Sequence record: PQ765507
From: Escherichia phage 212
DNA length: 64,000 nt
Direction: 5' to 3' (one strand)
Part shown: positions 42,358 to 42,657 of the stretch, piece by piece
Position numbering within the stretch: position 1 is the stretch's first letter
Layout: each line of letters begins with the position of its first letter
The notes under the pieces: model-generated
What the model was told of the DNA's origin: nothing
The model's database searches: none
The model's input: only the letters and a program-made list of their open reading frames with translations
Made by a program: the position numbers and the translations under genes

Positions 42358-42657
42358 ATGCAAACTTTTCATGAATTTTTGGTAGAAAACAATTACCTGG
42401 CGGAAGCAAAAACCTGGCCTCTGGGTCTTCAGAAGAAAAACACCTACAAATGGGTTGACTTCAAAGGTAAAGGCGACGCTGAAGACTTTGACCAGCTGCG
42501 CAAAAATGGTTATACCTTCCTTGACTCCAACTATAACAAAATTACCTCTTTTAGTCAGAAGTCAAGCATTGCCTTCATTGAAACTGGTAAGAACTCTCCT
42601 AAAGATATTTCTGACGACTTCGCCGCTTATGGTGTAATTCGTGGTTCAAAAATGTAA
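42358..42657 (+). CDS. internal-protein-like gene with capsid targeting sequence
   Basis: N-terminus MQTFHEFLVEN; payload homologous to the 55160..55423 product (GDAEDF..KNGYTF). Confidence 0.65.
   Translation: MQTFHEFLVENNYLAEAKTWPLGLQKKNTYKWVDFKGKGDAEDFDQLRKNGYTFLDSNYNKITSFSQKSSIAFIETGKNSPKDISDDFAAYGVIRGSKM

Follow-up and report, generated by a model that had tools for sequence, protein, structure and literature searches.

The T4 internal proteins (IPs) IPI, IPII and IPIII are head proteins that are directed by a capsid-targeting sequence (CTS), processed by gp21 and injected. The T4 prohead protease, gp21, is known to recognise L/I-x-E and to cleave after it. Each of the T4 proteins Ip1, Ip2 and Ip3 inhibits a different GmrSD type IV restriction enzyme without cross-protection, and the three have been described as apparently non-homologous (PMC12373910). 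Among the T4-type IPs, a class of injected, highly specific inhibitors of type IV restriction, only three T4 proteins have known targets (PMC12373910). In T4 the genes are found at two places, ipI in the order 57B-ipI-tRNA and ipIII/ipII in the order e-ipIII-ipII-denV. PeSL elements were reportedly associated with these two IP loci by Repoila et al. in 1994. PeSL-like elements tied to the two loci have been proposed as the cause of their plasticity (Arbiol et al. 2010, Comeau et al. 2014; PMC2839356, PMC4122927) and also to explain why IP genes are confined to two loci, which are described as undergoing horizontal shuffling (PMC2839356, PMC4122927).

The stretch of DNA analysed here (the window; 64,000 nucleotides of Escherichia phage 212, record PQ765507) has counterparts of both T4 places. 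Judged by its identity of 94-98% around the genes under study to the Gaprivervirus phages SP18, VR7, VR20, P896 and CJ20, it is a Gaprivervirus-like T4-type phage. Locus 1 has the order gp3, gene 1 (dNMP kinase), 57A, 57B, small ORFs, tRNAs, in agreement with the T4 map. Locus 2 follows about 12 kb further on, with nudE, e (lysozyme), a small ORF, denV, small ORFs and a vs.8-like gene. Seven small ORFs in the window start with a CTS (MKTYQEFI.E or a variant); four of them, A to D, lie behind 57B, and E to G are grouped around denV. The genes of the two loci are:

41220..41675, + strand: 57B (Acb1-family) gene, landmark of the ipI locus
41736..42068, + strand: IP gene A, CTS-bearing, payload unrelated
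42077..42349, + strand: IP gene B, ip9-type, payload unrelated
42358..42657, + strand: gene C (99 aa), the ipI-locus member of the two internal-protein paralogues and third of the four CTS ORFs after 57B
42721..42999, + strand: IP gene D, CTS-bearing, payload unrelated, followed by a PeSL at 43007-43037
53879..54370, + strand: lysozyme gene e, landmark of the ipII/III locus
54379..54648, + strand: IP gene E, CTS-bearing, payload unrelated, followed by a PeSL-like stem-loop at 54664-54686
54704..55111, + strand: denV, which marks the ipII/III locus and directly precedes F
55160..55423, + strand: gene F (87 aa), the ipII/III-locus member of the two paralogues, immediately after denV
55481..55780, + strand: IP gene G, which has only the CTS in common with C and F

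Gene C begins 683 nt downstream of the 57B stop and lies upstream of three tRNAs; its orthologues in VR20 and VR25 carry the annotation 'internal head protein'. Gene F starts 49 nt past denV. C is thus found in the ipI locus (57B to the tRNAs) and F in the ipII/III locus (e to denV/vs), where T4-type IPs are expected. The two starts are 12,802 bp apart, and what collinear DNA similarity is left between the genes (repeat families D11 and D18) has a common offset of 12,763 bp.

Several features of the surroundings are worth recording. The gene 57B (window 41220-41675; L010 3495-3944), annotated as 57B or 'RNA ligase', belongs to the Pfam family Acb1 (anti-CBASS phosphodiesterase), so that the variable IP locus adjoins another counter-defence gene. 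The three tRNA genes downstream of the ipI locus are located at 43718-43948; SP18 likewise has three (Met, Asn, Arg) and VR20 two. An Rfam scan of 41-57 kb returned these three tRNAs only. Just downstream of the tRNA cluster, at 44574-45700, two repeat families (D2 and D13) recur at a spacing of about 520 bp (45039-45069 vs 45563-45593, 94%), which points to two or three tandem paralogous small genes. In locus 2 the gap between G and the vs.8-like gene holds a non-coding element of some 110 nt (55795-55900), with other copies at L006 3515-3630, L004 1492-1605 (minus strand) and L008 2300-2412. It is about 90% identical over Gaprivervirus, RB69, S16 and a metagenomic phage and thus much better conserved than the flanking coding DNA (about 73%). 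The element matched nothing in Rfam, and none of its reading frames stays open in all four sequences; RNAalifold gave a weak structure, in which the near-invariance of the sequence leaves no covariation to be seen.

The leaders of C and F compare with the T4 signal as follows:

42358..42405, + strand: leader of C, a diverged CTS (MQTFHEFLVE) followed by a second conserved L-x-E (YLAE), with predicted cleavage after E10 and/or E16
55160..55189, + strand: CTS of F, MKTYQEFITE, ending in I-x-E

Both proteins start with about ten residues resembling the T4 IPII/IPIII leader MKTYQEFIAE. The leader of F agrees with it at 9 of 10 residues; that of C is identical at 5 of 10, the others being conservative exchanges. 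C orthologues in S16, L008 and L009 begin with MKTYQEFINE or MKTYQEFLTE. A scan for L/I-x-E located LVE at residues 8-10 and LAE at 14-16 of C and ITE at residues 8-10 of F, and none further within either payload. Thus the cleavage motif is present in both proteins, and cleavage itself is predicted. The second L-x-E of C (window 42397-42405; also in P0003, P0004 and P0005) follows the CTS by 4-6 residues and occupies the same alignment position in all C-type sequences, as LAE, LTE or LNE. This suggests a two-step or alternative cleavage that would take off 16 rather than 10 residues. The predicted mature C is a basic protein of 83-89 aa (pI 9.1-9.4) and the predicted mature F a near-neutral one of 77 aa (pI 6.2), a difference which fits diverged surfaces. 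From these hallmarks we infer that C and F are packaged, cleaved and injected; they are good sequence support for the predicted delivery from inside the head.

The original prediction, made from the letters of the window, held that C and F share motifs along their whole length, that they sit about 13 kb apart in different IP loci, and that at least one payload had been duplicated between these loci and then diverged. Both ORFs are present at the coordinates given above, and the two loci are indeed the classical ones of T4-type phages. At full length, BLASTP aligned C and F over 99 columns with 33% identity (E 2e-16). Since the common leader could give a trivial match, it was cut off before comparison, so that the payload of C began at residue 17 and that of F at residue 11. 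The leader-free payloads still matched with 38% identity over 61 residues (BLASTP, E 4e-15). Their Smith-Waterman score was 126, compared with 26.6 +/- 5.2 for composition-matched shuffles (z = 19.2), and 0 of 500 shuffles reached it. The whole-length similarity was thereby confirmed, and the outcome that would have overturned it, a score no better than that of such shuffles, did not occur. The remaining 20 payload pairs among the seven CTS ORFs behaved like shuffles, all with |z| < 1.4. When an HMM of the payload alone was run against a six-frame translation of the 64-kb window, there were exactly two matches, C and F (E 2e-38 and 6e-33), the next match having an E value of 1.6. C and F are homologous beyond their common N-terminal CTS.

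In existing remote-homology clustering C is already placed with F: both match phrog_2667 ('internal head protein'; C E 2e-21, F E 9e-21), covering positions 1-79 of the 101 in the profile. G matches the same profile over its full length (E 8e-43), yet it has only the CTS in common with C and F. This cluster is heterogeneous, so membership alone is no proof of payload homology. G was also considered as a third paralogue and rejected, as hhalign aligned only 22 N-terminal columns (the CTS) and the payload z was about 0.

Structure prediction for both proteins, which had been suggested along with the original prediction, points in the same direction. The AlphaFold2 models, built from a shallow alignment, are of moderate confidence (pLDDT 70.6 for C and 74.5 for F). 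In both, the leader helix is followed by strand-helix-strand-strand-strand-helix-strand, with an additional short helix in C, so that C and F are predicted to have one small alpha/beta fold in common. Each model matched only two proteins in BFVD, the homologue from phage MP1 and an F-type protein of Shigella phage JK42 (TM 0.62-0.77, E 1e-6 to 2e-12 overall). The C model matched the F-type entry with TM 0.62/0.70 (E 1e-6) and the F model the MP1 protein with TM 0.77/0.70. Nothing scored above threshold in Pfam for any of the seven IPs of the window, PADLOC gave no match, and a sequence profile search of the PDB returned nothing better than E 0.095. No likeness to T4 IPI, IPII or IPIII (Ip1-3) was found among the seven payloads, and C and F do not count as homologues of these GmrSD inhibitors. 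Literature searches on the ORF names of family members found no mention of them.

The distribution of the family was studied by tblastn of C and F against 50,697 phage records. The F type was found in 208 records, at >=90% identity in Gaprivervirus and then at about 66-79% in Mosigvirus (including RB69 ORF125c) and Gelderlandvirus. Matches of the C type at >=75% identity were restricted to Gaprivervirus (24 records) and Gelderlandvirus (about 15). T4 is without the entire family and the Mosigviruses are without the C type; IP content varies even between close Gapriverviruses. In both searches the match places outnumbered the records by 37, so about 37 genomes hold both copies and the others one, which answers the question, raised with the original prediction, of what related phages carry. 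When 1.84 billion protein representatives were searched exhaustively with an HMM, only about seven genuine clusters at 50% identity came up, each CTS-bearing; a word-indexed protein search gave only five clusters per query. Scans of the IMG/VR and JGI metagenomes gave 11 and 3 loci, mostly of known isolates, with almost no new lineages. On the strength of these searches, the family is small and confined to T4-like phages. Four further candidates (P0016, P0018, P0019 and P0020) were rejected as members; they are large repeat proteins (Flg_new, Big_9, TIG) whose scores are sums of weak 'GYTF'-type repeats and hence spurious.

All loci fetched, from about 14 lineages, were classified by their flanks. 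Locus 1, behind 57B, holds C in the Gapriverviruses, gp78 in Salmonella phage S16 (Gelderlandvirus), gp0136 in the Morganella phage MP1 (Gualtarvirus) and the metagenomic P0017. Locus 2 (nudE-e-denV-vs.8) holds the Gaprivervirus F, S16 gp70.1, RB69 ORF125c, the copies of other Mosigviruses and the metagenomic P0014 and P0015. S16 thus agrees with the window in having one copy at each of the two loci, RB69-type phages have the F type only, and MP1 has one distant copy behind 57B (about 40% identical to C). The F-type orthologue follows denV in RB69 and e/IP in S16.

In a neighbour-joining tree of the payload sequences, the C clade had 98% bootstrap, the F clade grouped with P0015 and P0014, and MP1 and P0017 fell weakly on the C side. 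The clades, as far as this tree goes, largely follow the loci. With deep nodes that are weak (27-63% bootstrap), the tree does not firmly support one old split between a locus-1 and a locus-2 lineage. By the distribution of the two types, the split between C and F predates the divergence of Gaprivervirus and Gelderlandvirus and is not specific to phage 212.

One of the metagenomic proteins is of a composite nature. P0015 (194 aa; L012 4001-4585) corresponds to two separate genes in L007 (178-860), each with its own CTS, and the C-terminal halves are clearly homologous (…NTGQ.Y..W….TGTA.I.QTRAAGGKMLD.KLNVK…). P0015 looks like a fusion of an IP of the C/F family with an adjacent IP.

C and F are each bracketed by repeated DNA, CTS-coding on one side and a promoter stem-loop on the other. 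The promoter-like and stem-loop elements of the two loci are:

42060..42067, + strand: exact T4 late-promoter consensus TATAAATA, inside the end of A and 10 nt before B
42673..42703, + strand: PeSL-like promoter stem-loop, GATGGGATA..TATAAT..TATCCCATC, directly 3' of C (-19.5 kcal/mol, z -3.2)
55119..55142, + strand: weak stem-loop with TATAAT between denV and F (-7.4 kcal/mol, z -1.8)
55437..55463, + strand: PeSL-like promoter stem-loop directly 3' of F (-21 kcal/mol, z -5.4)

Stable hairpins stand directly 3' of C, D, E and F (fold z -3.2 to -5.5), with hexamers resembling a -10 element (TATAAT, CATAAT or TATGAT) in the loop or the 3' arm. They are therefore PeSL-like, being intergenic stem-loops that contain or overlap an early-promoter -10 element and are repeated between variable genes. 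The one after C is an 84% repeat of the element after D (family D7). The one after F is preceded by GTTTACT (-35-like), forms a promoter-like TTTACT-16-CATAAT and contains an exact GGGATA..TATCCC element. Such exact elements occur four times in 64 kb (0.03 expected), and three of the four follow IP genes. The fourth, at 45107-45127, belongs to the putative tandem small genes at 44574-45700, each of which is preceded by a similar promoter/stem-loop element. The hairpin between denV and F may be a degenerate PeSL or an early promoter. The CTS-coding DNA is itself repeated at six ORF starts, and hairpin, RBS and CTS DNA together form a repeat of 61 nt (family D3), which at 42690-42750 is 79% identical to 55450-55510 and 69% to 55129-55189. 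Altogether, families D3, D7, D8 and D10 fall in PeSL-like elements. The exact late-promoter consensus occurs 19 times in the window (4.5 expected); no exact TATAAATA was found near F or elsewhere in locus 2. As B and C have no stem-loop between them, they are probably transcribed together late, and the promoter at 42060..42067 probably drives this transcription.

Taken together, we consider it probable that one small payload family, restricted to phages and using the T4-type IP delivery system, has C and F as two old paralogues. Both proteins would reach the prohead core via the N-terminal CTS; the prohead protease would cut the leader at L/I-x-E (behind E10 in F; behind E10, E16 or both in C); and the mature proteins of about 77-89 aa would pass into the host together with the DNA. 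Both IP loci would have received the family through recombination at the repeats that bracket IP payloads, namely the near-identical CTS-coding 5' ends and the PeSL-like promoter stem-loops at the 3' ends. A payload bracketed in this way could be copied or swapped by homologous recombination, within one genome or between co-infecting phages. Purifying selection keeps both copies, likely because their target specificity has diverged; as the example of T4 Ip1, Ip2 and Ip3 suggests, the targets are probably variants of a nuclease used in host defence. As to the duplication between loci that had originally been proposed, relocation or duplication followed by divergence is the right reading, but the event is ancient.

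Independent support for movement of payloads between the loci comes from a metagenomic phage (L008). Its protein P0004 is 68% identical to the C payload (tblastn) and has the C-specific WPLGL extension, yet the gene lies between a homologue of E and denV, and there is no IP gene after denV. The sister of P0004, P0005 (75% identical), is found in an A-B-C block like that of locus 1 in the window. With a C-type gene in the e-denV locus and its sister in the A-B-C block, this payload type has moved between loci at least twice. The spacer before denV in L008 (1730-1865) ends in GGAGGCTACTAAAATG, which is nearer to the spacer after C in the window (42658-42720, GGAGCTACTAATG) than to the denV leader of the window, GGAGAACAAACATG. 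This is a weak hint that the payload moved along with its 3' spacer.

Intragenomic duplication is not the only route by which two copies could have arisen. An ancestor with one copy could have taken a diverged allele from a co-infecting T4-like phage into the other IP locus, in which case C and F would be xenologues; we give this a substantial chance, somewhat short of even, and rate its proposed entry route, recombination at the CTS and stem-loop repeats, in the same way. The C and F types do act like alternative cassettes, as in L008, where the C type sits in the e-denV locus and neither F nor G follows denV. The differences in IP content among close Gapriverviruses and the horizontal shuffling ascribed to the IP loci (PMC2839356, PMC4122927) point the same way. 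Nothing, however, sets xenologues apart from an intragenomic duplication; clades that track the loci save for L008 fit either route. With DNA identity between C and F down to about 53%, moreover, the original recombination junctions have been lost, and the event is too old for a donor to be recognised. Duplication within one genome and cassette exchange between phages thus fit the data alike, and exchange may have taken place.

The selection on the two copies bears on their function. A dN/dS comparison between C and F, part of the original plan, proved uninformative because dS was saturated or undefined; the comparisons within each lineage were usable and gave omega values of 0.04-0.21. For C, omega was 0.04 between the window and VR20 (dN 0.024, dS 0.577) and 0.065 between the window and S16; for F it was 0.10 against S16 and 0.21 against RB69. 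These low values indicate that both copies are maintained. C and F are each under purifying selection.

The best interpretation of their role, guided by the T4 proteins, makes C and F anti-defence proteins that are injected and have diverged in specificity. We would give it not quite an even chance; in its favour, two copies were long retained, each under purifying selection, and their predicted surface charge differs. More ambitious is the idea that C and F belong, with their relatives, to a family of injected anti-defence proteins that keeps diversifying: new specificities would arise by duplication and divergence of one fold, and the cassettes would spread between the IP loci. In this extended form the idea is speculative and we regard it as rather unlikely.

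The main functional rival is that both are generic head-filling or DNA-counterion proteins, redundant and with no specific host target, of which two copies raise the dose. T4 IPs are abundant contents of the head, the predicted mature C is basic (pI 9.1-9.4), and in SP18 the gene is frameshifted with no obvious consequence. Yet the predicted mature F, with a pI of 6.2, is not basic, and the copies are only about 36-38% identical while each is constrained (omega 0.04-0.21) and has a predicted globular fold; a dosage or counter-ion role would not need such constraint and fold. In addition, all three T4 IPs now have specific targets (PMC12373910). We therefore consider a generic role unlikely.

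C could also be a decaying, non-functional remnant of the duplication, with F alone functional. In the Shigella phage SP18 the C orthologue (L002 2390-2644) has a 17-bp deletion between ACCTGGC direct repeats, with a frameshift after residue 15, and F is intact (98.9% identity). Judging from this allele, C is dispensable in at least one isolate, as would be expected of an accessory gene that is non-essential and variable among close relatives; the C type is likewise absent from Mosigviruses and the family from T4. As the CTS of C has diverged in Gaprivervirus too, C may be dispensable or poorly packaged there. A remnant would not be expected, though, to show omega values of 0.04 (VR20) and 0.065 (S16), to be intact in 24 phage records at >=90% identity, to keep a canonical CTS in Gelderlandvirus, or to retain an RBS and an upstream late promoter, so decay of C is very unlikely. 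That the similarity of C and F is trivial and due to a common leader, composition or chance only, as might be thought from a leader common to all seven IP ORFs and from the lumping of C, F and G in PHROG 2667, is next to impossible given z = 19.2 and E 4e-15 once the leaders are removed, the lack of payload similarity of G and the other IPs to C and F, and predicted folds that match reciprocally.

The closest relatives of C and F are RB69 ORF125c, S16 gp70.1 and gp78, and MP1 gp0136, which are direct family members in conserved loci. Orthologue payloads are 72-78% identical for the F type, 78-82% for the C type and about 40% for MP1; RB69 and MP1 have one copy, S16 and the Gapriverviruses two, and all these orthologues are uncharacterised. 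With T4 IPI, IPII and IPIII the two proteins share the leader MKTYQEFI.E, the L/I-x-E processing motif, the two genomic loci and the small size. No new mechanism is involved, since the way such proteins are delivered, the loci that hold their genes and the elements proposed to recombine them had all been described before. C and F add a new, uncharacterised family to a known class of delivered proteins and neatly illustrate a known kind of genome plasticity; they are not a new system.

The arrangement also resembles the PeSL model of T4-type hyperplastic regions, in that hairpins with a -10 stand directly 3' of C, D, E and F and, with the CTS DNA, form repeats of up to 61 nt common to both loci. 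It differs in what is seen, which here is one payload family over both loci and a relocated C-type gene in L008, not a recombination event. C and F are thus a concrete case of one payload family in both IP loci of one phage, with each copy under purifying selection, and lend support to a view of long standing, in which IP genes move as cassettes both from one locus to the other and inside each. They also offer a matched pair for asking how IP specificity evolves. If the more ambitious reading of a diversifying family is true, one virion would deliver two paralogous inhibitors against two variants of one family of host defences, such as nucleases of the GmrSD/BrxU type or others that depend on modification, in contrast to T4, whose three inhibitors are apparently non-homologous (PMC12373910).
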